DNA from: Bispira polyomma
Taxonomy: Eukaryota
DNA length: 64,000 bases
Reading direction: 5' to 3'
Assembly: GCA_965649765.1 (NCBI GenBank)
Contig: OZ287748.1
Location: forward strand, 41,292,001 to 41,356,000
The notes under the pieces are model-generated. The model saw only the letters and a program-made list of their open reading frames with translations. It did no database searches and was not told the DNA's origin. Each line of letters begins with the position of its first letter. The stretch's first letter is position 1. Below are positions 3,998 to 63,100 of this stretch, piece by piece. Both the position numbers and the translations under genes were made by a program.

Positions 3998-4192
3998 TAT
4001 TACATAACTAAAACACTGATAAAACATTTACAGCTTTTTTTCACAGGAGGTATACCTAATTAAATTTAAGAATATTGAACTTAAGTTTTATCTTGGTAGA
4101 AATTGAGAATGTGAAAAGTTGAAAATAGGTATCCAGAAATTTTCCATATATATTTCCGCAACCACTGGATCTATACATATATAAACTAGTAC

Positions 4193-4361
4193 CTTGTAAA
4201 ACAAGTTCCATGATTACAGGACTTGCAACAGCTATGACCAATGAATGTACAGCAAACTGAGTAGTGTCTCCAGATATAAATGTCATGTCACACAGCTTCC
4301 CATCATTCCTTAACATTCTGAATGCTTCCAGCATAGAAATCTCCCAATACTCTGTTGCCAT
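4193..4361 (-). CDS. BTB-zinc finger gene, first coding exon (N-terminal half of the BTB/POZ domain)
   Basis: ATG at 4361, acceptor ttctttcag at 4391 and donor CAAG|gtacta at 4193. Encodes LRNDGKLCDMTFISGDTTQFAVHSLVIAVASP, the classic BTB start. Confidence 0.85.
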
Positions 4362-27000: not shown

Positions 27001-30000
27001 TGGGTAGGCAAGGTTAAAAAGATAGATATTAAGCTTTTTTCCTAAAACCGATAAGTGTGTCAACTGATCTGAGGTCGACTGGGAGATTGTTCCATAACCG
27101 TGGAGCTGCAGTGGAGAATGCTCTGGATCCCGTCTTCCTGATTGGTCTGACCGAAGAGACAGAGAGTCTGTTGCCTCTCTTGCGGTTACTGAAGGAGAGA
27201 AGGGAGGCAAGGTAGGAGGCTGTTGAGTGACTACAGCCTTAAAAGTAGTAACGTGAATCTTGAACACAATGCAAGAATGAATGGGCAGCCAGCGTTATTA
27301 TTTTTAGGTAAGGAGTGACGTCTGTGCGACAACCCAGACGAAAAATGACCCTACATAGGTAGTTTTGGAGTGACTGGAGCTGTCTAATGTGTGACTTGTT
27401 TGCTCCATACAAGAGAGAGTTGCAGTAGTCAAAACGGCTACTCACAAGGGCATTTGCCACAGTTATCGCTGTGTCCATCGACAGGTGGTTTCTGATTCTT
27501 TTGATGTCGCATATATGGTAAAAGCAGGAGTGACAGATGTTGGCAATATGAGTGTCGAACAAAAAAGCTGAATCAAAAGTGACACCCAGGTTTTTGGCAT
27601 TTTAGATGGGAAACAAAGATTTTAGGAGTTCACTGTTTTTCTTGTTTCCTAGGAGGATGAATTCTGTTTTGTCCGGGTTAAGTTTTAGTTTGGAGTAGTT
27701 CATCCATGCCTGGACATCAGACAGACAGTCTGCAAGTAGGTCTATGTTTGTGTTTGCATTTTGTGGATTGAGAGAGAGAGATAGACTCGAGTGTCATCTG
27801 CATACATGTGGTGTTTTATATTATGTTTATTGATGAGAGTGTTGAGAGGATGTGTATAAAGGGTGAAAAGTAGAGGCCAAGGACGATCCCTGGGTAGCTA
27901 CATATGGTAGCTTTATGGAAGATGACAGGTGATCATCTAATTTAATTCTTTGTGCCCTAAGAGTAAGTAGGATCTGATCCATTTAAGGGCACTGCCATTT
28001 ATACCAAACCACTGCTTGAGAGTGTTGCAGAGCAGGACATGATCAATAGTGTTGAATGCAGCTGAGAGATCCAGAAGGGTGAGGGCTACTGTGTCGTTGT
28101 GGTCCAGTGCAAGATTGATATCATTGCTGATGGAAAAAAGGGCACTTTCTGTAGAGTGGATTTTTTTTTTCTGTACTTCTGGCTTACGAATAGCACAAAA
28201 TTTGATCCAACATCAAATTTTGTCGCATCTGCAAGCCACATACATGAAAATACTTCCTCTATTATATTCAAAAACAATTTTATAACTGTAAGCCATGCCC
28301 GCAAGTCTCAACTGCAAGGCACATATACAGAAACACCCACTTACATGAAAAGGAAGTCGACTTAACATAGTTCTAGTGTTTGACTATGAAAAATGCAATT
28401 ATTTTTCAATATAACCATTATAACATCATAAAATAGATATAACTATAACATACAAATATCATTTCTGCAAGATTACTATGCCTTGAAAAGTAAAGAGTCA
28501 CTTTATGACAATGACTCTTCAATTTTATGTTGGAAGGTAGTCTTGGTAAAACCCGCTGGTTTACAGAATAGATTTCAAACCTTGACCAATTACCCTGTTC
28601 TGATTACCTTTTACCAGTGAACTGTCTGTCATGATATGACACTAATGTGTCGAAAGTGACGTTAACCCAAAATAACACTAAACTTCTATTTTATGAATCT
28701 TTTTACCCTGTTCCGCTGTGAGTAATTGCCAGGTCTTTGAAATTAGCAAATTCTGACACAAAGTCTATCATCTGAGTACCAATGAGCATTGCCCTTTCAT
28801 CTGTGCCGCTTCCACTCACTAATTGTGCTGTAATCTGCCATGGTGAACTGATAGATCCTAACATGGTTATTGGGTCTCCCTGTAATAACCAACAATAGTG
28901 CTCCTTGTTTTAAAACGTAATACATGTATATATATATAATTTAACCATTTATAGAGCGCCAAATTGATGAGAACATCCTCTAAGGCACTGATATCCAAAA
29001 AGGGAAGGTCCAGAGGCAAGCACAAGGTCAGCAGAGACTAAGGAGGGGTTAGGCCAATCTGAACAGGTAAGTTTTGAGATGGCGTCTAAAACGAATTGTA
29101 TTGTGTGATCTTACAACAGACAGTCTGCTCCGTTCAACAGGAGACGCGACAGCAAAGTAGCAATTTTCTCGGGTAATGCTACTAGACTTAATACTGTATA
29201 CCAGGAAGTGCCACTAATTTACAACTTTTGAGAAGTTCACTGAAATAAATTTTCCACTTTATATGCTAGTTTTTAATTAAAATATGGATACAAATTCAAA
29301 TTGCCAATGGGAATTAGTTTTCACTATCACAACTCATTAGCTATAATGCCTTATTAATTTTTTCAATATGAATATATATAAATATTTCAATTTTGGGTTT
29401 TTTTTTTATGATACAAGTAAAATGACAATGAATATTAATAATTACATAGTTGACATGGTAAAAATAACTTACTGCATGTGAGTTACTTATATAATCCCAA
29501 TAGAATGATATTGTAGCTCAATGGTTATTTGACAAAATGTGAGTCACAGTCAACAAAGTGAGTTTTTTTGTATAATTTTTCAAACTTATAAATCACTTGG
29601 GCCATAAGACCCAAGGGCTGATATTGATTCATTGAGGGATCCTGATAATCTATAAGGCCTGTCACAATCATGCTATTACTATTATTATGTATTACTATGT
29701 AGAGATTTCTAACTTTGGTCAAAGTTAAATTTCAACCTTACTTTAAAACTACTGAAATTTATACAATAATACATTGAAGTATCATAAATTCAGTGAAACA
29801 AAATGTTCTTTATCCTATTCTAGGCAATAAAATACAAAAATTATGAGGCCAACTTATTCTATATTGCATACAAATATATATATACTCACTTGTAATACCA
29901 AAAACATCAGTTTTATAAAAGGATCTACTAGGATTGCAGGGTGAGGGACACTAATGTCACTAGCAGCCCTCGGACCTGCTGAGTAAATCAACATTCAAAA

Positions 30001-33000
30001 CTATGGACCCGGTATTGTCATGACAATCTGCTAGTAATGCCCTGCTTTTTGGTAATAATTGTCAATATGCTAGACCTACCTGTGCATCTGTCACTCTTAA
30101 CACTGGTGTTATGTCAAATCCAACTCCCTCGATCCCTTCACTAGCGGCTGATACCGCCTCCAAGATACTTGGTACCTGGTTGATCTACAAGGTTGTGTGC
30201 ACCGAGTAATAATTAAATTTTTTTTATTGATACAATTTTTGAAATTTTTAGTATAATTTTGACTGATTATTAATCAAATTGTTTTCTTGTTACAATACAT
30301 TTATTTGACAGCCCTAGTATAATTTACAATCTGATAGCAAGAAAACTGAGGAGAGAACAAAAGTTCCTTGGGATTTGTAAACATCAGCTGACTTATACAT
30401 CAGCAGTAAAGTGAGAATATGATCACTGCTGAGATGCATACATGGTCCTGCTTATAAATTGTAAAAATTTACGAAAAAAACAAATTGGGACGAATGAGAT
30501 TCTTTAGTACAAGCATTTGGGCATTGGTTCATTGTAACAAACCTCGTTATCAGCTGGCAACCATTCTTCTCCATCAACTTCCACATAAGGATCGGCCTGA
30601 ATACTGCGGCTATCATAGGTAAACACCAAACCATTCTCCAGGTCTACCCACAATGATTCTAGAGTGCTCTCCACTGCACTAGTTTGACCACCAATAAAGA
30701 AGGTAACCACAATACTACCTACAGGTAGAAGTAAATCTCTTATCTAAACATCCAGGGGTAGTATTCTTGAACAAATGAAAGTTCATTACTTACTTAATTA
30801 GATGTCAAGTATACTAGCGTTCTTGATTTTTTTACTCACTGAGATATAATTAAGTGGTATTCTTGATAATTACTTTGTAGATAAAAACTTACTTAAAATC
30901 ATTAAATACCAATATTTCCGCAGCTACTGCCCTGAAATTAGTAAATTGTTGACAATCTTAAAATTGTGACCTGTATTAGATAATTATGTGCTAATTATTT
31001 TAACAAACATAATAAAACTCTCATGTAAAGTTTATCACATAAGCGTCTAACCATCCTGTGGATAGTTTAATTGCTACATATGATCATGACATTATGTTAT
31101 ACCCCCACATATCAACATTGTTATATGTTATAATGACCCCTTTGTTGGAAAAACGCAAAGCCGCTGGCCAGGGATTTTATTACATTACAGTATGTAAGAC
31201 TAAAAGCACACATACCTTCAGACGTGGTAAAATTATCCATGAATAAATCTTCAGAGAGATATTTGGTGATGAAAAAGTTCTTCATTGCTGCATTAAAAAT
31301 GTCTTCTTCATCTTGAACTATGTCGCGAAAGTTCTCTTTAAATACAAAACGTGTTTCTCGGATAATTTCCACTATTGGAAAGCTTTCTGTCGTCACCGAA
31401 ATCAAATCAGAGTAGACCATAAAGCTGTATTCACTGACTGGGCTGGTCACACATTCAAAGGTGAAAGCCACATCTCCGTATTTGTTAAGTGTGAGGTCGC
31501 TGAAGGTCACTACACTATTCTCATTGATACTGACCGTGTTTTCGGTCACACTGTATACACCTAAGTAGCCAGTCTTATCATACTTCTCAATGGTACAAGT
31601 CCATGTATGACCCTGTATAAAACAGTGAATTCATTGATAGTTTAATGGAAACACATGAAACACTCATGGTATACGTGCATGTATGACCCGAAATAATACA
31701 GTAAATTAATTGATAGTTTAAGGAAACACATGAAACACAGGATGATATTATAGTCCTAGATAGCCAGTCTTATCATACTTCTCAATGGTACATGTCCATG
31801 TATGACCCTGGATAATACAGTAGATTCATTGATAGTTTAGGGAAACACATGAAACACTGACTCATATATTATAGCAATCACATGGCACTCCTGCAAAATT
31901 ACAGTATAACTATTTATGCTTCACATAAAAGGGAAATATCAGAGCTCTACTTGACGGGATTTGAATGTAGAAAGTTTCTTTATAAATTAATTAGATTATT
32001 CTCAAATTTTCAGTGCACTCTCTTCCACTCTACCAAAATTCACATTTTTCTACTGTTTATAGCAACACAACTTTGCTAGTACATAGAACAATATGTGAGG
32101 TATTTGAGACATCACATACCTTCCAGTGTATATTACTAGCTCTGGCTTTAGTCCCTATATCTATCAGTTCTAGTGTGATGTTAAAGTTTTGTCCTATTGA
32201 TACGCTCCTTGGAACGTCTATCGTTCTTGCTGACAGAACTCTGCTGTTTATGGTGAACGGTCCCATTAACAGTCGGAGTAAACTGGCGTTACTGGGTCGT
32301 GTCACCTCAAACTCAATCATATATCTACACAAAACAAGAAATACAATACAGTAAAATCTCTCACCATTGAACTTTTTTCCCCATTTTAACCAGACGAATA
32401 AGACAAATAATTTCTAACCAAATAACCTTATAAACATTGAAGAAAAGGTGAGTATTATGTCATAAAATTCTACACCACAGCAAATTTTGCTGCATACGTA
32501 AGCCACATTCATGGAAATACTTCTTCTATTTAATCAGGTTCAAGTTTATAACCACAAGCCAAGCCTGCAAGCCTCAACTGCAAGCTGCATACATGAAAAC
32601 CCTGCTTGCACAAAATGGAAATCGTCTTAACATAGTTATAGTTTGACTATATATGACTGCAATTTTTTTTAACAATGCAGTGATTGCATATATCAGTGAA
32701 AAGGTAAATATGTTCAGCTTATTGATACAAAGTATAATTGTCTTATACCTTGTGAAACTAAGTTATCTACTGAAAACATTTACCAGCATTTTGTTAAAAT
32801 CTAAAAATTATATTTTGTTTACAAATGTTTACACTAAAATGATAAATGGAAAAGTAAATTTGGACAGATTTTAAACCTTGACCAATTGCCCTATTCTGAT
32901 TATGCCGAAAGTGACGTTAACCCAAAATAACACTAAACTTCTATTTTAAGAATCTTTTTACCCTGTTCCACTGTAAGTAATTGCCAGGTCTGTGAAATTA

Positions 33001-33945
33001 GCATATCCAAACACAACGTTTATCATCGTAGTACCAATGAGCAATGCCCTCTCATCTGTGCCACTTCCACTTACTAATTGTGCTGTAATCTGCCATGGTG
33101 AACTGATAGATCCCAACATGGATATTGGGTCTCCCTGTAATCACCAACAATAGTGCTCCATGTTATAAAACTTAACATACATATATAGTTTAAACATTTA
33201 TAGAGTGCCAAATTGATGAGAACATCCTGTAAGGTGTTGATATTCAAAAAGGGAAGGTCTAGGGCCAAGGTCGTTGCCAAAAAGCATCCAAAAGGGAAGA
33301 GACTGAGAATTTGAATTTGGATATTTAACGTCCATTCTAGTACCTTTTAGTAGGTTATATTGGGACCGGTAGTTGGAAACGCTGGAGGAAACACTGAATA
33401 CAGTCGGTCAAGGTTCTGCAGAGAAACCAGCGGCCCACAGTAAGGAACTACCACCTTTCCCACATAGGCATCGATGGGATTCAAACTCATGCCGCCCAGA
33501 GGTGAGAGACCAGTGATTGTGAAGCGCAATGCTTGCTAACCACTAGGCCACCGCAGCCCCGGAAGAGACTGAGAAAGGGGTAGGCCAATCTGAACAGGTA
33601 AGTTTTAAGATGGTTTCTGAAACCAATGATTGTATTGTGTGATCTTTTGACAGACAGTCTGTGGGAGCTCGTTCCATTCAACAGGAGACGCGACAGCAAA
33701 GTAGCAATTTTCCCTGGTAATGCTACTGGACTTAATACTGTATACCAGGAACTGTCACTAAGTTACAATTTTTGAGAAGTTCACTGAAATTAATTGAATT
33801 TATTAGCTATAATAGTTAAAAGTTAATTCCTGGTAAACATTTACAGCTGTTCTGTAGTACATTATATTAAAAATATTAAAGTTATTTGTGTGTGAGAGAG
33901 GATTTGTGTTGCTCCAACAAATGCCTTGTATACATATTTTTAATA

Positions 33946-33990
<45 letters not shown>

Positions 33991-36900
33991 ATTTTCTTAT
34001 GGAAACATTATATTTATATCTACTGATAGCTGATACAAGTAAAATGACAATGAATATCAATAATTGCATAGTTGACATGGTGAAAATAACTTACTGCATG
34101 TGAGTTACTGATATAATCCCAATAGAATGATATTGTAGCTCAATGTTTATTTGACAAATGTGAGTTACAGTCAACAAGTGAGTTTTTGTATATAATTTTT
34201 CAAACTTATAAATCACTTGGGCCATAAGACCTACGGGCTGATATTGATTCATAGAGGGATCCCGGTAATCTATAAGGCCTGTCAGATTTCAACCTTACTT
34301 TGAAACAACTAAAATTAATACAATAATACATTGAAGTATCATAAATTCAGTAAAACAAAATGTTCTTTACCCTATTCTAGGCAATAAAATACAAAAATTA
34401 TGATGCCAACTTATTCTATATTGCATACAAATATATATATACTCACTTGTAATACCAAAAACATCAGTTTTATAAAAGGATCTACTAGGATTGCAGGGTG
34501 AGGGACACTAATGTCACTAGCAGCCCTCGGACCTGCTGAGTAAATCAACATTCAAAACTATGGACCCGGTATTGTCATGACAATCTGCTAGTAATGCCCT
34601 GCTTTTTGGTAATAATTGTCAATATGCTAGACCTACCTGGGCGTCTGTCACTCTTAACACTGGTGTTATGTCAAATCCAACTCCCTCGATCCCTTCACTA
34701 GAGGCTGATACTGCCTCCAAGATACTTGGTACCTGGATCATCTACAAGGTTGTGTGCACTGATTAATAATTTTTTTTTTTATTGATACAATATTTGAAAT
34801 TTGTAATATAATTTCCACGGATTGTTAATTGACTTGTTTTCTTGTTACAATAAAGTTGAATCCCTTTAAGTCTACTTAAGCAAGATTTCCATTTAGTAGG
34901 GTAGATTTAAAAAGAAAATGCATTAGTGTGCCTACAGATTCCTTACCACCTGCAAGGTAATTTGACTTAACAGAGTTCCACTTAAAAAGTTCAACTGTAT
35001 TTGAAATTCCTAGTATCATTTTCACTGATTAATAATTGAATTGTTTTCTTGTTACATGTATTTGAAATTCCTGGTATAATTTCCAAATTAATTGCTAGCA
35101 CTGAAAAGAAAACAGAAGTTCCTGTGCATTTGTAAACATATGCTCACTCAAATTTGAGCAGAATAGTCAGACTATCACCACTGCAGAGATGCATATATAT
35201 GTCCCACTCAAAAGTCCTCAAAACTCTAAATTTACAAAAAACAAATTGGGACAAATGAGATTCTTTAGTACAAGCATTAGGACAATAGTTTATTCTAACA
35301 AACCTCCTCATCTGATGGTAACCACTCTTCTCCATCAACTTCGATATATGGCTCGGCCTGAATACTACGGTTATCATAGGTGAACACCAAACCATTGTCC
35401 AGGTCTCCCCACAGTGATTCCATAGTACTCTCTACTGCACTAGTTTGACCACTAATAAGGAAGGTAACCACAATACTACCTAGAAGTAAATCTGTTAACA
35501 ACACATGCAGGGGTAGTATTCTTGAACAAGTAAAAATGTATTACTTACTTAATTTGAGTTCAAGTACTTTCTTGATTTTTTTATATACTTTGATACAAGT
35601 AGTATTCTTGATAATTACTTTTGAAGATGAAACCTTACTTAGAATCATTAAATACAAATATTTCAGCAGCTACCACACTGAAATTGGTAAATCTCCCCAT
35701 CGGGTAGTGTTGGGAATCCTAAAATCATGACCTGTATCAGATAATTATGTGCTAATTAATGTAAATTCATTATATTTGGTTAAGCATCGAAAGACTCTGT
35801 GGATAGTTTAATTGATACATATGATCATGATTTTTTTAAACATTATGTTGTACCCACAAACATCAACATTGTTATCTGTAGTAATAGCCCCATATTTAAA
35901 GATATTACAGTATGTATTACTAAAAGCACACATACCTTCAGACGTGATGGTGAAATCATCCATGAATAAATCTTCAGAGAGGTATTTATTAATGAGAAAG
36001 TTCTTCATTCTTGCACTAAAAATGGCTTCTTCATCTTGAACTACCTCGCGAAAATTCTCCTTAAATACAAAACTTATTTCTTGGATAATTTCCACTATAG
36101 GTAAGCTTTCTGTTGTCACAGAAATCACATCAGAGTAGACCATAAAGCTGTATTCACTGTCTGGGCTGGTCACACATTCAAAGGTGAAGGCCAGATCCCC
36201 GTATTCGCTGAGTGTGAGGTCATTGAAGGTCACTAGACTAGTCTCATTGATACCGACCGTGTTTTCGGTCACACTGTATAGGCCTAGGTAGCCAGTCTTA
36301 TCATACTTCTCAATGGTACAAGTCCATGTATGACCCTGTATAAAACAGTGAATTCATTGTAGTTTAATTGAAACACATGAAACACCCAAACAATGAAACA
36401 TTCATGGTACACGTTCATGTATGACCCTGGATAATATAGTAAATTCAATGATAATTTAATGGAAACTCATGACACACTGGATCATATATTATAGAAGCTA
36501 CATTGTCAAACTACAGTTAAAGTATTTCCTCATCAATATCTATGCTACTTGCTCTCCCAATGTTTACTTTCATTAACTCACTTTGACCCTCCCACATTAA
36601 AATTTTCCTACTGTTTATAACAATATGACTATTCTATTTTATGAACTCTTTGTTACCCTAATAAAATCTAGCACTCTGAACATAAAGGTTCTACTGTATA
36701 AAACAATCCGTGAGGTATTCGAGCACACACATGACATACCTTCCAGTGTATATCACTAGCTCTGGCATCAGTCTCTGTATCTATCAGTTCTAGTGTGATG
36801 TCCAAGCTTTGTCCTATTGATACGCTCCTTGGCAGGTCAATTGTTCTTGCTGACAAGACTCTGCTGTTTATAGTGACCGGTCCCATTAACAATCGGAGAA

Positions 36901-39900
36901 AACTGGCGTTACTGGGTCGTGTCACCTCAAACTCAATCATATATCTACACACAACAAGAAATACAATACAGTAGAACCTCTCAAGTCAAGAACCTTAATT
37001 CTACATTTCCAAGTGTGTGGTTTATGGTTGCAGCTTGTGGTCATATTTCTGTAGGAGATATCATATACCTATTTTATTCTGAAGGCTGTATCTTTCTGAT
37101 TTCTGGTGCAATTTTGGAACTTTTTTTATCATTTTAACCAGACGGATAAGAAAAACAATTTGTGTATTTCTGGCTTGTAATTGTTGCAAAATTTGATCAT
37201 ACAACAAATTTTGCTGCATCCGTAAGCCATGTTCATTGAAATATTTCTTTATTCAGGATCAACTTTATAACCACAAGCCAAGCCTGCAAGCCTCAACTGC
37301 AAACTGCATACATGAAACCCCTACTTACATAAAAGGGAAATCGTCTTGACATAGTTATAGTTTGACTATATATGAATGCAATTTTTGTTAAATACAGTGG
37401 TTGCATATATCAGTGAAAAAGGTAAATATGTTCAGCTTATTGATACAAAGTGAATAATTCTATAATTTAGTCCTACACCTTGTGAAATTACGTTAGTCAT
37501 AGACACAATTTACCATAATTTTCTTAAAATTATATTTTGTTTCCAAATATCTACACTAAAATGATCAAGCTTAATCAGTATCTAAGCAGGTTATACATGT
37601 ATTCAATTTAACCATTATAATATCATAAAATAGATATAATTATAACAGATAAATATAATTTCTACCTGAATTACTATGCCCTGAAAGGTGAAAAGTCACT
37701 TTATCATAAAGACACTTCAATTTTAAGTGGGAAATTAAACTTGGGACAGATTTTAAACCTTGACCAATTACCCTGTTCTGATTATGCCGAAAGCGACGTT
37801 AACCCAAAATAACATCAAACTTCTATTTTGAGAATCTTTTTACCCTGTTCCGCTGTGAGTAATTGCCATGACTGTGAAATTAGCATATCCAGACACAAAG
37901 TCCATCATCTGAGTACCAGTGAGCATTGCCCTATCATCTGTGCCGCTGCCATTCACTAATTGCGCTGTAATCTGCCATGGTGAACTGATAGATCCTAACA
38001 TGGTTATTGGGTCTCCCTATAATCACAAACAATAGTGCTCTATTTCATAAAACATATATGTATATATATACTATTATATATTATTGAAGCATTCATAGAG
38101 CACCTAATCAATGAGAACATCCTCTAAGGTGCTGATATCCAAAAAGGGAAGGTCCAGGGGTAAACAGAAGGTCGTTAGCAAAAAGCATCCACCAGGGAAG
38201 AGACTAAGAAGGGGTGTAGGCCAATCTGAACAGGTAAGTTTTGAGATGGCTTCTAAAACCAGTGAATATATTGTGTGAGACAGTCTGTGGGAGCTTGGTC
38301 CATTCAACAGGAGTCATGCGACAGCAAAGTAGCACCTCCAAAATTTTCCCGGTAATGCTACTAGACTTAATACTGTATACCAGGAAGAGCAAATGTTAGC
38401 TAGGAAGAACATGTCACTAATTTTAAAAATTTGAAAAGTTTACTGAAATAAATTTTCCACTATTGGCTAGTTTTCAATTAAATATGAATATAAATTAAAA
38501 TTTCCAATGGGAATAAGTTTTCACAATCCCAACTCATTGGCTATAATACAGTCGAACCCTGTTAAGTAGAACTTCAAGGGACCCCATACAATACTTTTAC
38601 TTTAGCCAGATTTCCTGTTAACAGGGTACGGTTTGTTTGAAAAGGTCTGGTTTGGACCACAAATTCACTTCTGTTTATCAGATAAGTCGACTTAACATAG
38701 TTCTACTTAAAGGGGTTTGACTGTGGTTAAAAGTTAATTCCTGGTTAAAAACTTTCACTTGTACTGTAGAATAATATATTTATATCTATTGATATACAAG
38801 TATAATGACATTTTTTTAATATGAATCATTACATGGTTGTCATGGTAAAAATAACTTACTGCATGTTACTTATTGATATAATCCCAATAGAATGATATTG
38901 CAGCTTAATGGTTATTTGAGTTACAGTCAACAAAGTGAGTTTAGTGTATCTTATTCCAACTTATAAAACACTTGGGCCACAAGGCCCGATATTGATTCAT
39001 AAAGGGACCCTGATAACCTATAAGGCCTGCCAAAATGATAGTGTTACTATTATTGTGGGTTACTATCTGGTGATTTTTAACTTTGGTCAAAGTTAGATTT
39101 CAACCTAACTTCAAAACAACTGAAGTATCATGACTTTAGTAAAAAAATTTGCACCTAGTCTAGGACATAAAAAAACCCATCCGTTTCATGAAAGGAACCA
39201 CTAAGATTGTAGTGCAGAGAGACATTAATGTCACTATTGGCCCTCGGACCTGCTGAGTAAATCAACATTCAAAACTATGGACCCGGTATTGTCATGACAA
39301 AATGCTAGTAATGCTCTGCTTTCTTGTAATAATTGTCAATATGCTAGACCTACCTGTGCGTCGGTCACTCTTAACACTGGTGCTATGTCAAATCCAAATA
39401 ACTCAACCCCTTCACTAGCTGTTGATACTGCCTCTAAGACACTTGGTACCTGGATCATCTACAAGGTTGTGTGTACTGATTAATAATTGAATTGATCGTT
39501 ACAATGCAGTTGAATCCTTTTAAATTTACCTAAGCAGGATTTGAATAGAAAAAGCATTAGTTTGCCTGCAGATTTCTCTCCACCTAAAGGGAATTTGACT
39601 TAACAGAGATCCACCCAAAGAGGTTCGACTGTATTTGAATTTCCTAGTATAATTTCTACAATTTATAGAAATTAAACTCTCTTCTTGTTACAATACATGT
39701 ATCTGAAAGTCCTATTGTAACAAACCTCAACTGGCAACCTCTCTTCTCCATCATCTACCATATACTTGCAGTTGAATTCTTTGAAGTATAAAGCAAAGTA
39801 TCTGGATGCAATGGGCTCATTTCAGGTGTACACTTAATTGTAATGGCTTCTCACCTAAATATTATTTCTAATGTTGTTCAAAGAAACATCAAATGTCATT

Positions 39901-45900: not shown

Positions 45901-48900
45901 AATAAAATATGTGACAACCAAATATCATTAAAAGTTACAGGTGTTTAGTCCTTATCTAAAAAAATATATTTGAGATAGAAAACTATATACATATAACAGT
46001 TTCCCAATTTTAATTTAATTAACCTTTTATTACATGCATAAACTCATGCGGTTCCATAACATTAAATCTACCATGTATTTTCATAATAAATGCTGCATAA
46101 AAGAAAATACATACGGAAATGGTTGAAGTTTTATAGATAATCAATAACATGTTAAAGCCATGCCAGGTTTTTTACAACCCATCTAAATACATTTTATCAG
46201 TAGAACAGGGATCAAAAACTTCTATGAATTGATGATAACACATATAAGCATGTTAAGCATGTTAGGTTTCATCAATTATAATTGTTTAAATACGCACACA
46301 TATTACTATGTTATCTGCCACTCTACGTTTTAACTATTTTATAATTATTGAAATTTCTGCCACTGATACTTTATAGAGTATTTACTGTATACATGCATAA
46401 TCTACTTATCAGAATTGTTAGTTATCTCTCACCATACATTTTCACATGTAAATATATTTTATCATTATTACAAAGGTTAAAATGTGACCTATTACAAGCA
46501 AGTTAGGGGCCAGATATTTTAATTGTTTAAATATACACATATTACTAGGTTATCTGCCACTATCGTTTTATGATTTTGTAATTAGTGAAATTTCTGCCAA
46601 ATTGATACTTTATAGAGTATGTACTATATACATGCATAATTTACTAAATATAATTGTTTAAGTATACACACATATTACTAAGTTATCTCTCCCTATTCAT
46701 TTTCACATGTAAATACATTTTATCAGTAGTACAAAGGTCAAAAACTTCTACTGAATTGATGAAAAAGCACATAGCAATACTAGTTAAATAGTGACCTATT
46801 ACAAGCCTGTTAGGGGCCAGCACTTTAGATACACACATAGAACTATGTTATCGGCCACCATAAATTTTAACTATTTTGTAATTACTGAAATTTCTTCCAC
46901 TGCCAATTTATTAAGTATGTACTATTTATATGCATAATCCACATATTGGTAGCCTTACAATTTGTTCGCTGATATTTCAGCATATGTACCATTCAATTTT
47001 ATTTTAAACCTAATTTGGTTAGCAAAAGGATGTATTTAAATATATTTAAGGATGTATTTAAATTTGACACTCTCATATTTACATAAAAAACTGTGTTAGA
47101 TACTGAATTTCATGTTATGTATCCCACACCACACAATGTATTCTACAGTACTTTGTCATATTGATATAAAGGAAGACCTTGAGTACTCAAAGTCTGATGT
47201 TAGAATAAAAATCAAAACTTGTAAATGAAAAAAATAGCAAAGTTTTAATATTAAAAAATTGTAATAAACTACACAACCAAAAATAACATAGAAATCAGGG
47301 CTATCTTTATTGGGGTCAAACATTACACACATCCAAAAGTTTTGTTTATTCATTTGTAAATCTAGGAGTAACAAATTACCGATCTCATCTGTTTCTGCCC
47401 CTATTATCTTATAATTCAGATTTTAATTAAACAATACAGCTACTGCTCAACTTACAGAGGACTTGGAAGAGATAATCATTTCAGATCGCCAGTTTCTTTC
47501 AAAAGCAGATTAATTTTTACTACTCACATGGACATCTTAAAGACAATAAATATCATTTTTTTTATTTTAGCAATTAAAAACACATTTTCTCTTAATAAAT
47601 CAGCTAAACCCCTGACATTCATGCTACCGATTCTCAAATTGTTAGAGTAAATATAAAACAAACCAACAACAACCAAAAATAAAAATATTATACGCAGTTT
47701 CCTAATGCTGTTGTATTGGAGCAGAGAGAAAGGTAAGTGGTGTACAGGAAGTCATAAAGGAGACACACTGTAAAATCATTTGGGTATTTATTAAACATTT
47801 ACACATTTCTACATTTACTATAATCCTCTTTAACATTAAGGTCACCCTATCCTAAGGCCATTGAGGCCTGTTTACATACATAAGGTGATCTTAACTTGAA
47901 GAGGTTTTAAAATACCTATCTATTTGTTAGTACTACTACAACTACTGAATATATAGCTTGGACCTTATCTAAAGCCTTACTGTTGAGGGAATTACAATAT
48001 AAGTTAGCCTCATTAAGGCTTGTTTGTGCCTGAGTTGCCTAACCTCTGTGAGGTTATTACATCACACTTTTCCAAGCCCTGCTGTTGCTTATACCTGTTT
48101 TATTGGGAACCGGGAGGGTGGAATTTTTTCATCGTACAGCCACCAAAAGATTAAATGAATATAAACCCTCTTGGGGCTGGTTTACCAGGAGTGGGTGGTT
48201 TTTGCGGCAAATCATTGTTTCCTTAATTAGAAGCTGATGAGTAAAGTAGATGGGGGTGTCTCCATTTGAGGGTGACACTTTGTTTGCAAGAATATCCTCA
48301 TAATATAAGGTTGATTTGAGTAAAGTCAGTTAAGGTAAGTGAGACTTGATGCTGCTTATACATCACACATTCAATTTATTATGAAAAGGTAATAAGGAGG
48401 GGGAGAGGGAAATGGAAAAAATAAATACATGACAAAAAACAACAACCTATATAAATACTGTACAAAGGTCAAAACATGTCCCATCACATGTGTATGACAG
48501 AGTGGATCTTCTTGGTTTATTTTGGTTCGGGCAAGGGAGTGCTGTTTCCACTGCCACTGTAACCACTAGAAAGACTTCCCTGCCTGGTCACCACTACTTG
48601 CCTTCCCCTCATATGATGCTGGTGATGCCTTTGCTGTTTTCAGATCTCAACAACAGGTTTGCACTGTTAGGTGTACTACCACCAGTACTTGGGGAGCTCG
48701 TAGGACTACTGCTATCAAACTGCAGTGGGTCACTGTACCCTGGAGACAGTGTGCTGCGACTATGGGAAGAGTGCTGACTAAAGCTCTTGTCATTATAGAG
48801 GATCCTCCTGGGTGGGGCCTGGTCTGTGACTATGATCTCTCTACTGCCAGACACTTCAGACCTGCCATCACTTTTCAGTCGAACAAGCAGTGATCGTCCT

Positions 48901-51130
48901 GTTTTAAATGAAAAGAAACCAGTCAAGATAATTTGGTATAGGAAACCAGAATTAATCTTCCTATTATTAATTTAAAAAAAAAACAAGTTTCTATATATAT
49001 AAAACATTAATCAGGAACCTTCCTATTGTAAGTTAGAAACACAAGTCAATATGAAGAATATGTATCAATAGGAAACAAGCAGTGGTCTTCCTTTTGTAAA
49101 TTAAAATAAATAAGCCAATTCATACATATATAAAACATGCAGTGATATTCCTAATGTATATTAATACACAAGTCAATCTAAATATACAGTGCAAACTCTA
49201 TTATCCAAACTTCTCTTATCCGAATATTCGATATTATGAACACATTTCCACCCTCCCAAATTTATTTTTTCCTAATGTTTTACAGATATGCATAAGCAGC
49301 ACATCATCTTTTATTCCAAATTCTAAATATGACCTGAATATCTACTTTTCTAACACATTTTTCTAACACATTAGATAAACCTTCCAAATAAAAATATAAG
49401 AAAGATTCTACTGCATTATGCTGTGGGTTATCATTAGCTTTTATCATCCATTATTTACATATATGTTACCACAAAAAATAAATTTTCCGTATATATCTAG
49501 TTATTCTTTAATTGCAGCCTATATTTACCTGATTTTGTGCCCTTTAGTAACAGCACCAGTATAAGGGCCAGAACAAGTCCTACAGCAACTACACCAAGTA
49601 CTCCAATAACAGCAGGATGTAGTCCACCACTGTCGTCCAACTCCTAAAATATACGTAAAAGAGATATGTTAAATTTAACTAAATAATGTCAAAATGAAGC
49701 TTTGTAAAAAGAATGTTTAGTGTCACATTTCATAAACATTTTTTTAGCAGGTGAAAACATTAAAAATGACAGTCAGCCGAACAGTTGAGCTTATGAGACA
49801 CTCTATATACATAAATTTTACACTTAATTAAGTTACAAATATTTACAAATATACATGGACACTGATTTTAACAATGTATACCACATATATTTGCTACCTG
49901 TGCATCCAAATTACAAATATAGTTAACATTTATGAAATAATAAAAAGTACTGATACTACATGTGCATACAAATCACAAATATATAGTTACCATTTAAGAA
50001 ATAATAAAAATAAGTACTCACAAAACATGTGCATACAAATCACAAAATGTGCATACAAATCACTAATATATAGTTACCATTTAAGAAATAATAAAAAGTA
50101 CTCATACGTCCAAAATCATATTTCTAGATAGTTCAAAAATTTCCGAAAAATATTTGCTGAAGTTTGAGATATTTTCTTTTTCTGTAGATTTATTGATTTT
50201 TTCAAATATTGACAAGTTATCCCATGTATGATATTTTTGCTTCATAATATTTTCGAGAGTTTAATATGAAAACCCTTCATGAAGTGGTTGGAAGCAATCA
50301 ACCTGGCAAAATTAATTAGGGGCCAGATTAATATTTCTCAAATATATTTTTGTCGGATCAGTTGTCGGGCGAAACCAGAGAAAGAAAAATGTCACAAATA
50401 CCTTTGATGTGGGAGTACAAGGGTAATTGAAGTTAGGGTCAATATGATAAAGGACACTCTAAAAGTAGATCCTAAAGTCATAGACCCTATGTTCTCCAAA
50501 TCAAACTCTCCGATTCAACCATCCCTTGCTTTGAAGCGAATAGATGAAGACTTTTTAATATGTTCGAACTCTCCAGACAATAGAAATGTCTTCACAGCTC
50601 ACACCTGTGAAATCTCAAACCATGATGAGGCCTCTTCTGCTCATGCATCACTCTTCCAAAACCAGAGGTAGCAAAGGCAACCCACAGAGTATATATTGGT
50701 ATTCGTATGAATCGCCAGTGGGCAAAGAAGATTTCTACGGCCATGATGATGATGGTGAATTCTCAGCCTCAAATTAAGGAATAACACATTCCAAAGCACG
50801 GTATACAGTAAGTTTTACTATTACTGGAGGAATAGTAACATGAATGATTTAAAAATGTACTGTAGTAATTAGGCAAGGTCTAAACCTTTTAAATTTCTTT
50901 TTTTATAAATACTGGTACAAATACTACAAGTTAACAACTAGTATCTACACGTTAGTAACTAAAAAAAAAAACAATTAAAAAAAAGTTAAAATATCGACAA
51001 GTTCTAAAGAGGTATCTACAAGTTAGTAAATAGTATCTACAAGTTAGTAAGGAGTATATACAAGTTAGTTACTAGTATCTACAAATTACTAACAAAACAA
51101 ACAAAACATAAAAGTTAATAGAAACTCTAA

Positions 51131-54100: not shown

Positions 54101-57100
54101 ACTCTATGGAGGACTTACTTTATAAGAAATAAGAATTTGGTCAAAAGCTCTATGGAAATGAATTAAAATGGTATTGGCTATATAAATGACATTTTGACTG
54201 ATAGACGTAGGCCAGCGGGGTACTGTTAGTTTGTTAAAAAATATTAAGTGAAAATGACTTTTGGTGATTTTTATAGTTTGACCCATTCAGTTTCAAGCGA
54301 CTAGGTAATCAAAGACTTGAAACAAAGTTGGCAGAAAATAAAGTTAATCATTGGTTGGTACAAATCATTCTACAACAAAAGAATGTCAGCAACTGGGTGT
54401 ACAAAACAATTAGATCACTAGCAAATTCCTCTAGAGGTAATGAATAAATTGGACAAACCTACTTGGGACTAATTTAACACATATTGATTAGAAAAAGTTT
54501 TACTTAAATCACTTTCAATGTAATCTAGAGAGTTCTATGCATGCTTTCTAGTACAAGATTCTACTACGTTCATTACCAACCAAAAAGTTCTTCGAAAAAT
54601 GCAATCTGCGATATTTGCGATAAATGTTGGTTTTGTAAAGAAAATTTTGAAGGTATAGAACATCTTTCTGGTATTGCTTGACAGTACAAACTTTCTGGTT
54701 TCTAGTCTTGGATACAATGAATGCATCCGTAGAAATTAGAAACGAAGTAAAAGATCTAAACGTACTTTTGGGTGGAGCAAGGAGTAGATATAAAGACAGT
54801 TTGAACTTTCTTTTTACCTTGGTGAAAAGTATGTCTATAGAGCAAAAGCTTAAGAAGATATATATATTGGTTAAACATTGATGCCTTCAAGAATGTGTTA
54901 AAATATTATCACAATGTTGAAAAGTGGATAGTCGAAAATTTATATAGTAGTGTGAGGGGTTTCATAAAAAAATAGGAACTGCTAAGTTGAACCATGTAAA
55001 ATATTAATTAATGAACTTAATGTACAAATATGTAGTTTATTTCAAGTACCAGTAACCATTTGCATTCTTTAATTTAAAGTAATGAAATGTAATCTATATT
55101 ACTTATTTTTTTTTAATTAAAAGAAAAGAAATATAAATATATATATATACATATAAACATAAAAAAGTTTATATATGCAATAACTTTGTACTTTATCTGA
55201 TGTAAAGGTTAAATTTATTTTTAAATGCAATCGTGTGAGATGCCTACATTTGTACAGCTCTTGGTGAAAGGTTTTCACAGGAAGATTTATCTAACAGTAA
55301 GGTCATATCTGCAAACTGTACTGTCAGTTTATATATTATTCTATTCATTTTTCATAACCTGTGCAATATAAAAAAGAATATTTTCTATCTCTACAATGTG
55401 TGCACTCATATATTTATTGAATTGTTTTCTTTTTACAATACAGTTGAACCCCTGTAAGTCGAATCTCAAACGATCAGTAGAAATGACTCTACTAAAGCAG
55501 GATTTCCACTTGACACGATAGATTTGAACAGAAAATGCATTGGTGGGCCTGCAGATTTCTTTCTACATAAAAGATCATTTAACTTGAAAGAGTTCCACTT
55601 TCAAAGATATTTGAAATTTCTAGTATAATTTACAAAGTAATTGCAAGCAAACAGAAGTTTCTTGGCATTTGTAAACATATGGTTACTTTTATTTGAGCAG
55701 TAAAGTGGGAATATTATCTCTGTTGATATGCAAATATGGTCCTGCTCATCAATCCTAAAGATTCTAAATTTACAACAAAAAAGATATTGGGATAAATGAG
55801 ATTCTTTAGCACAAGCATTAGGACACTAGTTGATTGTAACAAACCTCCTCATCAGCTGGCCATCTTTCTTCTCCATCAACTTCCATATAAGGCTTGGCCT
55901 GAATACTGTGGTTATCATAGGTGAAAACCAAACCATTCTCCAGGTCTACCCACAATGATTCTATAGCGCTATCTACTGCTGTAGTTTGACCACCAATAAA
56001 GAAGGTCACCACAATACTACCTGTAGGTAGAAAAAGAGTAAATTTGTTAACAAAACATCTAGGGGTAGTATTCTCTAGCGAGTGAAAATTCGTTATTTCC
56101 TTAATTATTTTTTACAAACTTGATTTCCTACATACTAAGAAATGAGTGGTATTTTTGATGATGACTTTGTAGATGAAAACCTACTTAGAATCATAAAAAA
56201 CCACTGTACGCCCCACATCTTTCCTTACGACCTTGCTATGAACATAGACTTCACGATTAGATCGATGATTCTGCTGTTGCACTTTAGAAGATGCCTAGGA
56301 TCAATAAAGTGAGTTAAAAAATGCATAATAATATAATAATAATACTATTAATATTTCAGCAGCTACTACACTAAAATTGGTGAATCTCCCCATTGGGTAG
56401 TGTTGGGAATCTTAAAATCGTGACCTGTAGCAGATAATTATTGTTTTGTTTTGTATTGTATTGTGCATTTTTAACGGGCCTTATTGATGCTAGGCATCTT
56501 CTTAGGCGCAACATCAGAATCAATCAACCAATGAAAAAATGAAAAACACAGCCAGGTCGTAAGGATGGATGCGTCAGCGCCCAGTAAGAGGACTACGGTG
56601 GATAGGCGAGTCTGAAGAGATAGGTTTTAAGCTTTTTCCTAAAACCCAAAAGTGTTTCAAACAGTCTAGGTTCAGCTGGAAGACTTCCATAAACTAGGTG
56701 CGGCGGATGCTGTTAATGTGAGGAAGAAATGAAAAAGCAGGGTCGATAGTGACACCTAGGTTTTTGACCTGGTCTGAATGTTGAATCTCATTACGCACCA
56801 GTGTGATTGGAAAAAGTGATCACTGTGTTTTTTATTTCCAATTAGGATGAATTCAGTTTTGTCAATTATGTGCTAATTCATGTAAATAAACATGTAAAGT
56901 TCAACACATATGTACATATGATCATGATTGTTTTTCAACATTATGTTATACCTCCACATATCGACATTGTTATCTGTTGTTATATTGTTTTTAAGAGATA
57001 TTACAGTATGTACTCAAAGCAAACATACCTTCAGATGTAGTAAAATTATCCATAAATAAATCTTCAGAGGGATATTTGTTTCTGAATAAGTTCTTCATTC

Positions 57101-60100
57101 CTGCACTGAAAATGTCTTCTTCATCTTGAACTATCTCACCAAAGTCCGCTTCGAATACTATACGGATTTCTTTCATAATTTCCACTATGGGCAAGCTATG
57201 TGTTGTCACTGAAATCACATTGGAGTGGACCACAAAGCTGTATTCACTGTCTGGGCTGGTCACACATTCAAAGGTGAAGGCCACATCTCCGTATTCGCTG
57301 AGTGTGAGGTCACTGAAGGTCACTAGGCCAGTCTCATTGATACTGACCGTGTCTTCTGTCACGTTGTATACACCTAGGTAGCCAGTCTTATCATACTTTT
57401 CAATGGTACAAGTCCATGTATGACCCTGTATAAAACAGTGAATTCATTGAGATTTCAAAGGAAACACATGAAACACTTGATGATATAAAAGTCCTAGGTA
57501 GCCAGTCTTATCATACTTCTTAATGGTACAAGTCCATGTATGACCCTGTATAAAACAGTGAATTCATTGAGAGTTTAGAGAAAACACATGAAACACTGAA
57601 TGATATAAAAGTCCTAGGTAGCCAGTCTCATCATACTTCTTAATGGTACAAGTCCATGTATGACCCTGTACAAAACAGTGAATTCATTGAGAATTTAGGG
57701 AACACACATGAAACACTGGAGATATAAACTTCCTAGGTAGCCAGTCTTATCATATTTCATAATGGTACAAGTCCATGTATGACCCTGGATATTACAGTGC
57801 ATTCATTAAGAGCTAAATAGAACCACATTATCTAAATTACATTTATTTGGGCTTTACGTCACTTTTAACAGCTTAGGTCATATTTTGACGGAATCACATG
57901 ACACAGTAGTACTCCTGTGAAACTACAGTAGAACTGTATTGTTCCACATAGAAAGGAATTGATTTATCAGAGCTCTACTTAAAGAGATTTCACGATAGAA
58001 AGTATCTTCATATTTAAATAAGATTATTTACAAAGAGAGTAAGTAGACTCTCTGTATGTAGAGCCGTAACTCAAATGTTAGCACAGCTAACACTAAAATA
58101 GTTTGGTGGTCCATGCACTCAGATACAGCTGAACCTCTATCACTTATAATTACAGCTGTAACTCAAATGTTAGCACAGCTAAAACTTAAGTAGTTTGGTG
58201 GTCCATGCACTCAGATACAGCTGAACCTCTATCACTTATAATTAGAGCTGTAACTCAAATGTTAGCACAGCTAAAACTTAACTAGTTTGGTGGTCCATGC
58301 ACTCAGATACAGCTGAACCTCTATCACTTATAATTAGAGCTGTAACTCAAATGTTAGCACAGCTAACACTAAAATAGTTTGGTGGTCCATGCACTCAGAT
58401 ACAGCTGAACCTCTATCACTTATAATTAGAGTTGTAACTCAAATGTTAGCACAGCTAAAACTTAACTAGTTTGGTGGTCCATGCACTCAGATACAGCTGA
58501 ACCTCTATTATTTATACTTGTATTATTTCCAGTATTACATGAACTCACTTTCACTCTCCCAAATTGACATTTTCCTTCTGTCTATTAGCAACACATGACT
58601 CTTCTATGTCATGAACTCTTTTATTACCCTAATCAAATTTTACACTCTGAACATAGAGGTTTTACTCTATAGAATAATACAGGAGGTATTCAAGCACACA
58701 AATGACATACCTTCCAGTGTATATCACTAGGTCTGGCTTCAGTCCATGTATCTATCAGTTCTAGTGTGATGCTGAAGCTTTGTCCTATTGATACACTTCG
58801 TGACAGGTCCATCGTTCTTGCTGACAAAACTCTGCTGTTTATGTTGAATGGTCCCATTGACAGTCGGAGAAAACTGGCTTCACTGGGTTGTGTCACCTCG
58901 AACTCAATCATATATCTATAAATAAGAAGAAACATAATACAGGATAAATAGTTATTTTGAGACATACAATGAATACAGCAGAGTGTAAAATTGTAAATAA
59001 ACTGGCTAATATTTTCAAAGTACATGCTTCACGTGACACAACTCACATACCAAGAAAGAATCAATACTGAGTATTGTGCCTGACAAGAAAAAAGGAAAAA
59101 ATCAGCATCATTTTAAATGAATTCGTTTTCCAATAAAAGCACAAAAAACAGGGATAATTTTAGAAAAACATTAAGTTACACTCTTAACATAGTTTCAATG
59201 TTCGATTATATATTAATGTAATTGTTTTTAACAATGCATTGGTTGAATATGTTTGGCTTAAAGGGGTTTTATGAACTACGATTTCAACAACTTTGTCAAT
59301 GATGTTGGAAGATGCCTGGCATCAATTAGGCGCATTAAAAATCTATCATATCATATCATTTTACTGTATATTGATGCTAAATACAGTTGATAATCTTGAA
59401 CAACTAGTATGCACTGCTTTACCCCACCAGTAAAACTGCCAGTTATGATGTGACCAAAACAATGCATTTAAAGCGATGTTAAACATAATCAACCAATCAA
59501 TATACCTTGGGAAATTAAGGTATCCATACAAACAATTAACAAGCATTTTGTTAAAATCTAAAAAAATCTATTTTAGTTTGCGAATGTTGACACTATAATG
59601 AAAAGGCTTAATCAGTATTTCAAAATAGGTTACACATAAATTCAATAGAACCATTTTAACATCATAAAAAATATATAATTATGACAAACAAATATAATTC
59701 AAATCTCAGTTAATATCAAAAGTGAAGAGTCACTTTACGACAATGACTCTTCCATTTTATGTGGGAAGCTAGACTTGGTAAAGGCCGCTGGTTTACAAAA
59801 CAGATTTTAAACGTTGACAAATTACTATGTTCTGATTACCTTCACCAGTGAACTGTCTGTTTTGTGTGATATGACACAAATGTGTGAAAAGCGACATTAC
59901 CTCAAATTAACACTTAAACTTCTATTTTAACAATCTTTTTACCCTGTTCCGCTGTGAGTAATTGTCAGGTCTGTGAAATTAGCATATCCAAACAAGAAGC
60001 CCATAGTCAGAGTACCAGCGAGCAATGCCCTATCATCTGTGCCACTGCCATTCACCAATCGCGCTGTAATCTGCCATGGTGAACTAATAGATCCTAACTG

Positions 60101-63100
60101 GGTTACTAGGTCTCCCTGAAATCACCAACAATAGTGCTCCATGCTATAGAATATGACATATTATATACTGTATATACCGGGCAGAAGAAATGTTAGCTGG
60201 AAAAACAAAATCACTAATTTACAACTGTTGACAAGTTCACTGGAATAATTTTTCCACTATTGGCTAGTATTTTGTTAAAATATCAATACAAATTCAAATT
60301 TCCATTGCAAACTAGTTTTCACTGTCATAAGGCATTGGCTATAAGAGCTTAAAATAATTCCTGGTAAAAATATCCAGCTTTATGGTTATTTCACAAAATT
60401 AAAATGCGAGTTACAGTCAATAAAGTTAGTTCTTGTATATAGTTTTCCAAACTTACAAATTACTTGGGCCGTTAAGGAAAGGATCCTAATAACCTATAAG
60501 GCCTGTTAAAATCTAGGCAGTATATTATTATCAGTTAGTGTTTAGAGCTTTCTAACTTTGGAAAGTTAGAAAACTTCAAAGTTATAAATCAGCCTAACTT
60601 TAAAACAACTCAAATGCCTACAATAATACATTGAAGTATCATAACTTTTGTGAGACAAATCTTTGTATTTGACGGATATTTTTGAAATTTTTTTTATCCT
60701 ATTTTAGGCCACAGAATAAAAATTATTGTATGAAACTTATGATACCAACTTACTCTTTATTGCATAAATATATACTTGTAATGCAACAAAACATCAGTTT
60801 TGTGAAAGGAACCAATAGGATTGCAGGTCTGAGGGGCACTAATATCACTAGCAGCCCTTGGCCTTGCTGGGTAAATCAACATTCAAAACTATGGAGTCGG
60901 TATTGTCATGACAATCTGCTTGCTAGTAATTCCCTGCTTTCTGGTAATAATTGTCAATATGCTAAACCTACCAGTTCGTCTGTCACTTTTAACGCTGGCG
61001 TTATGTCAAATCCAACTCCCTCGACCCCTTCACTCCCGGCTGATACTGCTCCCAAGAGACTTGGTATCCGGATTGATGTCAAGGTTACTGTGCCCTCCGA
61101 GAGACTTTCGCTGACTTCCTCCCATGCTGGATCATCCGAAGAAGGCATAGGCTCGATCACATTTGCTCTGAGTAATGTTATATTTAGAATACCACTCAGT
61201 GTGCCCAGCTGAACTTCTGTGATTATCTTACTTGAGATATTAAGAATGTTACCCTGTATCATTTCTGCGGAGTCAGTTCCGTTTTCTAAGTTCAATATCG
61301 GCGGCTCACTGATTTCGAGATCCACCGATCCCTCGGATTGTCTCTTTTTCTTCTTCTTGGATTCCTCCCTGACAATATTGACCACTTTTATTCTGGAGGG
61401 ATCTATCCCCAAGAATGTGGCCAAGTTACCCACTAAATTCTCCCCAAAGAACTCGTCGATTGTCATAGCGGGTACACTGAATGATATGACCACTATAGGG
61501 GCTATCACAATGTCGACTGGGCCCGGCCCTTTTAGTGTCACGTACAACATTTTAGACTCGCGGTCAAAGTAATTGGTTCCAGATACTTGTGTAAAAGTAG
61601 GTTGATATTCAGACTCATATGATGGTTCACTGTATACAATTTGTCCATCATCATTCAGATCCGAGTTGGCAGGAGACACGTACACACCATTTTTGTAAAC
61701 ATCTAGGCGCTGTGGATTTGCGTAGTACACTGCAATTGTTATTGCTTGGTCAGCATCCGTATTCAAGAGGTAAAAACGCGTCTTTTGAGGATTTGTACTT
61801 GACAGGTAAATGTCGTAATGTTTATCTGAAAAAAAAATCACATGTCACAGTCAAATATGATAACACAATGTACAATCCTGTTAAAATATTCAGTAAGAGC
61901 CTCCACTAGACTTGCCTGTTGCTGTTGTGTCTGCACAAGGTGGAGCTAGTGGTACTTTAATCAATGCTACAATGTGAAGACACAGCAAACTTCCGAAAAC
62001 AAGTGTACAGATTTCCATTTCTCGCTGTTTTGAATTATTTTGTAAACCGTGATTACCAGCAGTTGAATTTTTATAGAATTGGCTAGGTGAAGCTGCAGTC
62101 ACTTTTAACAATGGCACTTTACTCAATACTCGTTACAATAGAAGGTATGCATGCAGACATGTTATGTAGTTTTGAAAGGTGACAACAAACTTCAAAATAT
62201 TTATATAAATATGAATTAATAAAATGAAAACATTTTTCATTGCTTTTCATACAGTATAAATTTAAATATTGTTAAATGGAGTAGTGTGTATTCATGTTGT
62301 TACATGACTTGGATCTAATATGGCTGCAGCCACAATAGATATTGCTCTTTGGTGAGGTGTTAAAAAATCAAATAAAATGCCTCAATTAGTAAAATTCTGA
62401 CTTAAAAAAAATAATATTTGTGTGCACTGACTAAAATTAAATAGCTTTGACGAAATAAAAATAAATATTATAAGGTGAAAATCAAACATAGATAACGCAC
62501 ATGCATGCCTGCTGAAGTATTTATTTAAACAGATTACAGTTCATTTAAAAGTGGTGAGGTCATTTGACATTTAGCACTCTCAACCATTCAAAATGGCTAT
62601 AACCTGAAATCCATAATTTTATATTTCATCGGACTGGATCCGAATACACAGAAGTGGGGGAATTTGGGAGGTCACTTAACAGTCCATAGTCATGTATGTG
62701 GCTAGCTGTAGTAATGAGACACATTGATAAGCCACTTTAATTTGCTTCTTGCCACTTTACTAGCCGATTACTAGGCGATTCTTTAATTTCCCGCAATTTA
62801 CAGAGCAAAAAATAATATGGGTCAACTCCTCTCCAAAGAAAATTTGACCATCAAGTTTTAACAAACTTCTTGACAAACTTAGCACCAAACCAATTCATCA
62901 AAGAAAAAAAAAACAAATTTATTTTAATAAGATTAATATTTCTCCTTATATAACATAAGTGAATATTCTGTTGCAACATAATGTAGTGACATTCCTATAG
63001 GGTCTGTCATGCAATCAAGATTAACTGAAAAATAAGAATTCAAGGTAAGGTACTTATAATGTCAGTTGCAACAAGTTTGCCCTGTTAAAAACGTGTCCAA

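Follow-up and report, generated by a model that had tools for sequence, protein, structure and literature searches.

Our analyses of a 64,000-nt stretch of the Bispira polyomma genome (hereafter the window, contig OZ287748.1; G000:C1:41292001-41356000 of a 1.035-Gb animal genome) point to the birth of a splice acceptor by internal gene duplication. The window contains the 3′ end of a minus-strand PKHD1L1/fibrocystin-L-like gene whose membrane-proximal module is present in four copies. In the reading that we favor, with a probability of about 0.6, an intragenic tandem duplication joined the intron behind the last exon of the module (exon E) to the middle of an upstream coding exon (X2), recruiting an intronic TTGTAG as an in-frame acceptor.

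Self-comparison of the window revealed four copies of a 4.5-5.6 kb unit, each encoding a membrane-proximal unit of 352-353 aa (exons A-E) that translates without a stop. Exons B, C, D and E are present in every copy with canonical splice sites. Copies 2-4 have a separate 105-nt exon A, whereas in copy 1 the equivalent is the tail of exon X2 (60972-61825; 854 nt; this and all exons and junctions below are on the minus strand), the final 105 nt of which (61076-60972) represent the parent of exon A in its unfused state. The 5′ part of X2 is single copy in the genome. The remainder of module 1 (55845-60115) consists of B1 (60115-59943), C1 (58915-58711), D1 (57425-57029) and E1 (56020-55845). Module 2 begins with junction J2 and exon A2 (39354-39480; AG 39460-39459, A2 39458-39354) and continues with B2-E2 in open frame (35304-38016), and module 3 with J3 and A3 (34637-34765; AG 34743-34742, A3 34741-34637) followed by B3-E3 (30543-33134). 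Module 4 comprises J4 and A4 (30080-30210; AG 30186-30185, A4 30184-30080) and a segment at 19026-28879 with B4-D4 (28879-25424) and E4 (19201-19026), which are separated by an intron that holds a 5.8-kb transposon. Every module edge is in phase 0, including the E donor and the B acceptor. The long form from X2 to the last exon, G4, reads through 1842 codons, its only stop being the terminal one, and the sole exonic indel among the modules is one whole extra codon in D2.

The starts of A2-A4 resemble two different parents. AACCTTGTAG ends at 39459, 34742 and 30185, while gtgcacacattgtag is found at 55405-55391 in the intron behind E1 (site 55387-55410, AG 55392-55391, with no exon A behind it) and the corresponding X2 tail at ~61095-61060. 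J2-J4 align with the post-E1 intron through TTGTAGA-GAT (0/500, 1/500 and 0/500 shuffles attain the local scores) and with X2 from GCACA onward (0/500 shuffles each), and ~24 nt of each junction are similar to both parents. Against random 30-mers drawn from the window, the 7-nt in-register match of the junction to X2, AACCTTG, has a chance of 0.008, and TTGTAG within an 11-nt slot a chance of 0.003. TTGTAG stands in register in the post-E1 intron, a putatively ancestral one. In the flank of the post-E1 site lies a remnant (55438-55600, no strand assigned) of a high-copy element resembling a miniature inverted-repeat transposable element (MITE), a genome-wide repeat (38/40 scored matches, 1169 candidates) that is present after E1, before A2 and before A3 and absent before A4. 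In addition, a decayed remnant of a copy of exon E, from its 3′ end, precedes J2 (39725-39765). A preliminary description of this DNA had quoted these motifs, equated the missing exon A of module 1 with the X2 tail, noted the resemblance of the junction to both parents and the MITE remnant common to the introns before A2 and A3, and proposed that a duplication breakpoint fused an intron to mid-exon in frame. We found every motif at its place and J2-J4 aligning first to the post-E1 intron and then to X2, in agreement with those points. The further claim of a new acceptor at the breakpoint stands in that the site is absent from module 1 and from 3/3 paralogs (below); creation of the site is, however, the less likely course, the intron being the most probable source of the AG.

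The segments 29729-30297 and 34286-34852 are 95% identical, with 0 differences in the 180 nt after A3/A4 compared to ~10% divergence elsewhere, and likely represent a recent gene-conversion tract. Thus, J3 and J4 are not independent.

Placed in register, the two parents are alike at 8/9 positions (chance 0.017), the breakpoint sequence having since diverged, but as a free local alignment parent against parent is not significant (912/2000 shuffles reach the score). The microhomology-guided fusion of the preliminary description therefore retains the in-register likeness (p ~0.02) in its favor, and has against it the free alignment; overall, the sequences are modestly suggestive of such guidance. 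Two properties of the post-E1 intron weigh against our reading: it matches the junction only after two small deletions (ACC and T), and beyond the junction point the E1-F1 intron has no significant homology to the E4-F4 intron (6/30 and 45/300 shuffles). The second of these would be accommodated if the crossover had instead taken place at GCACA and point mutations had then produced the AG within the X2-derived sequence; the post-E1 site would in that case be a former junction, now broken, and the parents would not be independent. Indeed, when gaps are allowed, few changes separate the junction from X2, AACC is common to the junction and X2 and missing from the post-E1 site, and the first 80 nt of the post-E1 intron are nearer those of the post-E2 intron (0.091) than those of the post-E4 intron (0.291). 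However, such a course requires a later break at most ~5 nt from the junction as well as a nonfunctional intermediate, whereas unequal exchange between the E-J and E-F introns gives the same mosaic without the coincidence, and E1 is closest to E4 (p 0.068; 5/6 informative sites). We consider an AG evolved in this way improbable.

The polarity of the change is given by relatives with a single module. A protein search of the same genome identified three paralogs, all with one module, with a match that breaks at the same B-E borders and with an open frame through the start of A. One is a plus-strand, single-module paralog on the same contig (C1:41279300-41284600), 12 kb beyond the window start and tail to tail with the present gene, with an X2 that is 45% identical. 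The other two (C12:5993001-6013000 and 6140001-6160000) lie ~150 kb apart, with additional introns in the X2 region but none between E and the transmembrane segment. We also assembled 157 homologous proteins, namely the best 150 of 459 matches of a rotifer-seeded search together with earlier matches. A module-profile match was present in 54 of these proteins that are at least 600 aa long, and 35 of the 54 contain a near-complete module. The module repeat is absent in 52/54, and the other two (P0036 and P0123) contain partial, independent repeats of module domains (Ig2+SEA in P0036); none contains a full second module. Because 3/3 paralogs are without an intron at this position and the homologs are without a full second module, the sequence comparison indicates that the single unfused module is ancestral and the intron split before A derived. 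The preliminary description had named single-module orthologs as the place to look for the unfused state, and it is what the 3/3 own-genome paralogs have. The reverse polarity, in which the intron before A is ancestral and was lost by module 1, we reject as barely conceivable, given that the paralogs have one open frame across the position and that the intron before A duplicates the post-E one, complete with an E-end remnant; nothing was found in favor of it.

To place the breakpoint in the protein, we used a fold model of homolog P0084 built from a 42-row alignment, which has a mean predicted local distance difference test (pLDDT) score of 78.6, with values of 85-98 across the module. The model shows two immunoglobulin (Ig)-like β-sandwiches (residues ~205-323 and 323-438) followed by an α/β domain (446-544). 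Exon A corresponds to residues 203-237 and supplies strands one and two of an Ig-like domain starting at 205-208; hence the breakpoint is in frame, at most ~5 residues away from where the domain starts, and precedes its first conserved residue by four codons. The third domain (448-542) has a β-α-β-β-α-β order and matches Trop2 with a Z of 8.8 and a root mean square deviation of 2.9 over 94 aligned residues; from this model it is likely a SEA domain, and Pfam gave no SEA match. A whole-model Foldseek search of P0084 returned generic Ig-chain matches only. The motif GS(I/V)VV is the autoproteolysis motif of SEA domains. It occurs as GSIVV in all four modules, with G and S 85% conserved in the homologs, and cleavage is predicted.

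Whether exon A is spliced in by the new acceptor decides what the duplication achieved. E to B splicing also keeps the frame, both sites being in phase 0, such that A is skippable and the new site is not needed for frame; instead, it would restore the whole first Ig domain. For the same reason, the preliminary description erred in holding that the new acceptor made the cassette amplifiable, as the B acceptor and the E donor already delimited a symmetric B-E cassette beforehand. Several observations count against use of the site. The J acceptor has 3 T at -20 to -5 (16 positions) compared to 7-11 in 21/21 other acceptors of the window, which represent 7 distinct sites and their copies. (The T-richest YAG near each tblastn block, taken as an acceptor set, is biased, with at least 6 T in 38/39, and is of supporting use only.) Its scores with a local position weight matrix are -6.6, -6.6 and -9.1, compared to 2.4-11.1 for 16 real sites, and its AG ranks 23/33, 13/17 and 22/41 among nearby AGs. 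In exon A alone, 7/17 changes are synonymous (probability of no stop and at least 7 synonymous changes 0.077, not significant), and 2/9 conserved columns vary compared to 7/26 of the other columns; across modules 2-4 (M2-M4), 185 nt of the adjoining intron show no more than 1 indel. Exon B, which supplies the rest of the first Ig domain, is weakly constrained: M4 carries G78E, in a column that is 98% conserved, and M2 carries D84V and L85M.

These data bear on an alternative in which the J AG is unused, E is spliced directly to the next B, A2-A4 are intronic leftovers and the first Ig domain of modules 2-4 is without two strands. The shared phase 0 of the E donor and the B acceptor, a J acceptor no better than the median nearby AG, the breaks at conserved columns of B and the nonsignificant constraint on exon A would all be expected under such skipping. 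Nevertheless, of ~1.7 kb of equivalent exon/intron positions the breakpoint fell at most ~5 residues from a domain start, in frame. Moreover, A2-A4 keep 7/7 family-conserved residues of A1 and show no decay relative to the family profile (scores of 23-28 compared to 21 for A1), have no stop and no indel and retain intact A donors, and most core residues of exon B are kept. We therefore regard skipping of A as unlikely. Because the breakpoint is at an Ig-like domain edge and exon A keeps the family residues, use of the J AG is favored and, as judged from sequence, likely. Inclusion of exon A in the transcript by either AG is quite probable. A second in-frame AG (CAG followed by GT) is present 9 nt downstream; it is common to J2-J4, reads CGG in X2 and scores slightly better.

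Modules 2-4 are under purifying selection, as revealed by codon comparisons. Nonsynonymous to synonymous rate ratios (dN/dS) are 0.43 (0.29-0.65) for M2-M3, 0.36 (0.25-0.57) for M2-M4 and 0.53 (0.34-0.91) for M3-M4, all intervals being below 1, and a codon model rejects ω=1 for M2-M4 (2dlnL 13.8, with κ on a four-value grid). Frameshifts number 0 in modules 2-4, where the intron rates (7-18 frameshifting indels/kb) predict 7.7-18.7 per module pair. Weighing on the other side, selection per branch is significant for M2 only (p 0.011; M3 0.38, M4 0.066). By these sequence criteria, modules 2-4 are translated now or were until lately. Between G1 and A2 we found no remnant of upstream exons, only the decayed exon E end; hence modules 2-4 most simply join the transcript of the same gene. 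The presence of a full terminus ahead of A2 could also be explained if modules 2-4 and F4-G4 were a tandemly placed second haplotype or assembly duplication, or else an incomplete, dead gene copy. Contig depth is similar for F1 and F4, each at about half that of their shared 91 nt, a pattern that two haplotypes also give. The copies, however, differ by synonymous divergences (dS) of 0.11-0.27 and by 10-18% in introns, and the decayed E end marks an old rearrangement. Moreover, modules 2-4 and F4-G4 have kept their frames, and it is G1 that is frameshifted, making such an artifact or dead copy very unlikely. The module trees form a mosaic of exons versus introns, and as a result the order of events is not fixed.

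The gene has two sets of transmembrane and cytoplasmic-tail exons. F1 (49529-49643) and G1 (48511-48898) follow E1 over 49643-48511 and went unmentioned in the preliminary description, as did the decayed E end ahead of J2, and F4 (17461-17575) and G4 (14636-15075, frame intact to the stop) follow E4. Relative to G4, G1 carries a 10-nt frameshifting deletion that cuts off ~30 residues, which the old frame would still encode as far as the same stop. G1 is identical in contigs of 3/3 sequencing runs, compared over 48380-49760; the runs behave as DNA and come from two samples of one study, possibly the source. Divergence is lower for E1-E4 (above), F1-F4 (5/115 nt differ) and G1-G4 (dS 0.11) than between module 1 and modules 2-4 elsewhere (dS 0.22-0.27), so that the second terminus probably arose after the junction; the intron trees are mixed. 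AATAAA sites are present behind F1-G1. As F1-G1 lie between modules 1 and 2, a four-module form must skip both these exons and the AATAAA sites behind them. Speculatively, choice of the terminal exons might yield two receptors, a one-unit form (Ig-Ig-SEA) whose tail is truncated and a four-unit form with up to 5 SEA-type cleavage sites, the switch being a deliberately weak, breakpoint-born acceptor. We think this doubtful; if true, the stalk would be splice-tunable by ~1050 aa, with its whole origin readable in sequence.

From what is observed, namely the junction and its two parents, the polarity, the open frames, the selection and the domain borders, we infer how the parents paired at microhomology, the order of events and the splicing of exon A. 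A nonallelic exchange, to which the imperfect GAG-GCACA...TTG likeness may have contributed, would have joined the post-E intron to mid-X2. The TTGTAG already in that intron would then have become a usable acceptor, probably by exon definition from the intact A donor, with exon A included through the TAG or through the CAG 9 nt downstream. Selection may have kept this breakpoint, as each extra copy encodes a whole Ig-Ig-SEA unit, and unequal exchange and conversion would have amplified the unit to four. A later E-F-G copy would have added the terminal pair F1-G1 after module 1, and a four-module transcript would splice E1 past F1-G1.

The family assignment is based on homology. Exon X2 matches a protein named fibrocystin-L-like (E 2.5e-30), and seven homologs of 4200-5000 aa gave 41 tblastn blocks in the window end and ~90 kb upstream. 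By this homology, which spans the whole ectodomain, the gene is a full-length PKHD1L1/fibrocystin-L-like gene. Searches with the module itself were negative: a Pfam scan matched no family to the module, a word-based homolog search seeded with exon D1 gave 0/80 candidates, and an Atlas search of the module gave nothing beyond leads of <0.9 to Ig-like clusters. As in vertebrate PKHD1L1 and fibrocystin, which in the accessible portions of the reports have a SEA domain and a basic cleavage site (PMC11527881, PMC13755561), the present gene would encode a very large single-pass protein with a SEA (MAD-like) domain and a basic cleavage site before the membrane-proximal part (same sources, same portions). 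A single hydrophobic run is present in F1 and in F4, and the homolog model has a helix at 560-587. In contrast to invertebrate-type homologs, which have one Ig-Ig-SEA unit after the first SEA, there are four here. Also unlike PKHD1L1/fibrocystin-L, there are two alternative transmembrane-tail ends, with tails of ~130-150 aa, not 6; for human and mouse PKHD1L1, the accessible part of PMC11527881 describes no verified alternative isoforms. The tail encoded by G4 is ~146 aa, in place of the mouse-type 6-aa cytoplasmic tail, and many homologs also have long C-terminal parts, suggesting that the 6-aa tail is a vertebrate trait and not a family limit.

Gao and Lynch reportedly described in 2009 how internal gene duplications can activate latent splice sites. 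As far as the available parts of the literature describe such cases, they share with ours a tandem duplication within a gene, a new splice site in or close to the duplicated segment, here probably derived from a latent one, and a longer coding sequence. Here, too, the duplication lies in tandem within one gene, and the splice site is absent from the parent copy and from outgroups (module 1, 3/3 paralogs). The present case differs in that the donor is old and only the acceptor is new, probably intron-derived and at a domain edge, and in that the acceptor was amplified with a 4.5-kb five-exon unit. Symmetric-phase exon sets amplify protein modules, and duplicated alternative last exons are known. 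The phase 0-0 cassette at domain borders and the two homologous terminal-exon pairs fit this pattern, but here the duplication itself created the 5′ border intron. Imprecise gain of introns, in which tandem duplication makes use of latent splice sites, is described as common in the accessible part of PMC3443670, which cites Gao and Lynch 2009, and a potato RdRp tandem duplication recruited one cryptic splice site, according to the portion of PMC4974935 available. Intron gain of the Rogers type likewise creates a new exon-intron boundary from a tandem duplication, the potato RdRp recruiting one cryptic site, again in those portions (PMC3443670, PMC4974935). Unlike in that model, no duplicated exonic AGGT supplies both sites here; the old E donor is combined with an intron-aligned acceptor, and each unit adds 352 aa. 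We rejected AGGT-type intron gain as a candidate, as the acceptor aligns to an intron and the protein is changed.

The gene thus offers a clean new case in which an internal duplication has probably activated a latent splice site, by a mechanism that is itself known. It is of textbook quality, from one gene in one genome. Few cases are available in which a splice site was born and both parents are still readable. A selective filter is visible as well: the frame was already safe, yet the surviving breakpoint is at a domain edge beside a usable AG. The fibrocystin-L architecture, with four stalk units and two possible ends, is unusual and was unseen among the homologs examined. In the literature searched, which lacked most subscription papers, there was no report of this junction, this locus or a multi-module invertebrate PKHD1L1.

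A second duplication across a splice site within the same gene was also evident. The D acceptor and the first ~54 coding nt are tandemly repeated in 120-bp units (57373-57828, 36277-36485, 31554-31874 and 25762-26001), with 4 copies in module 1 and 2-3 in the others; the upstream copies run into stops, such that only the last D acceptor is productive. Five 92-bp tandem repeats are present at 58059-58519, in the C1-D1 intron only. The D4-E4 intron contains the 5.8-kb element (19335-25150), with long overlapping open reading frames of 584, 471+250 and 900 aa and inverted/split terminal repeats, which we take to be a young DIRS-type retrotransposon; a relative sits upstream on the opposite strand. 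Finally, positions 1-4412 of the window, on the minus strand, presumably contain a BTB-like and multi-zinc-finger gene, labeled from motifs, with an 895-codon open stretch.

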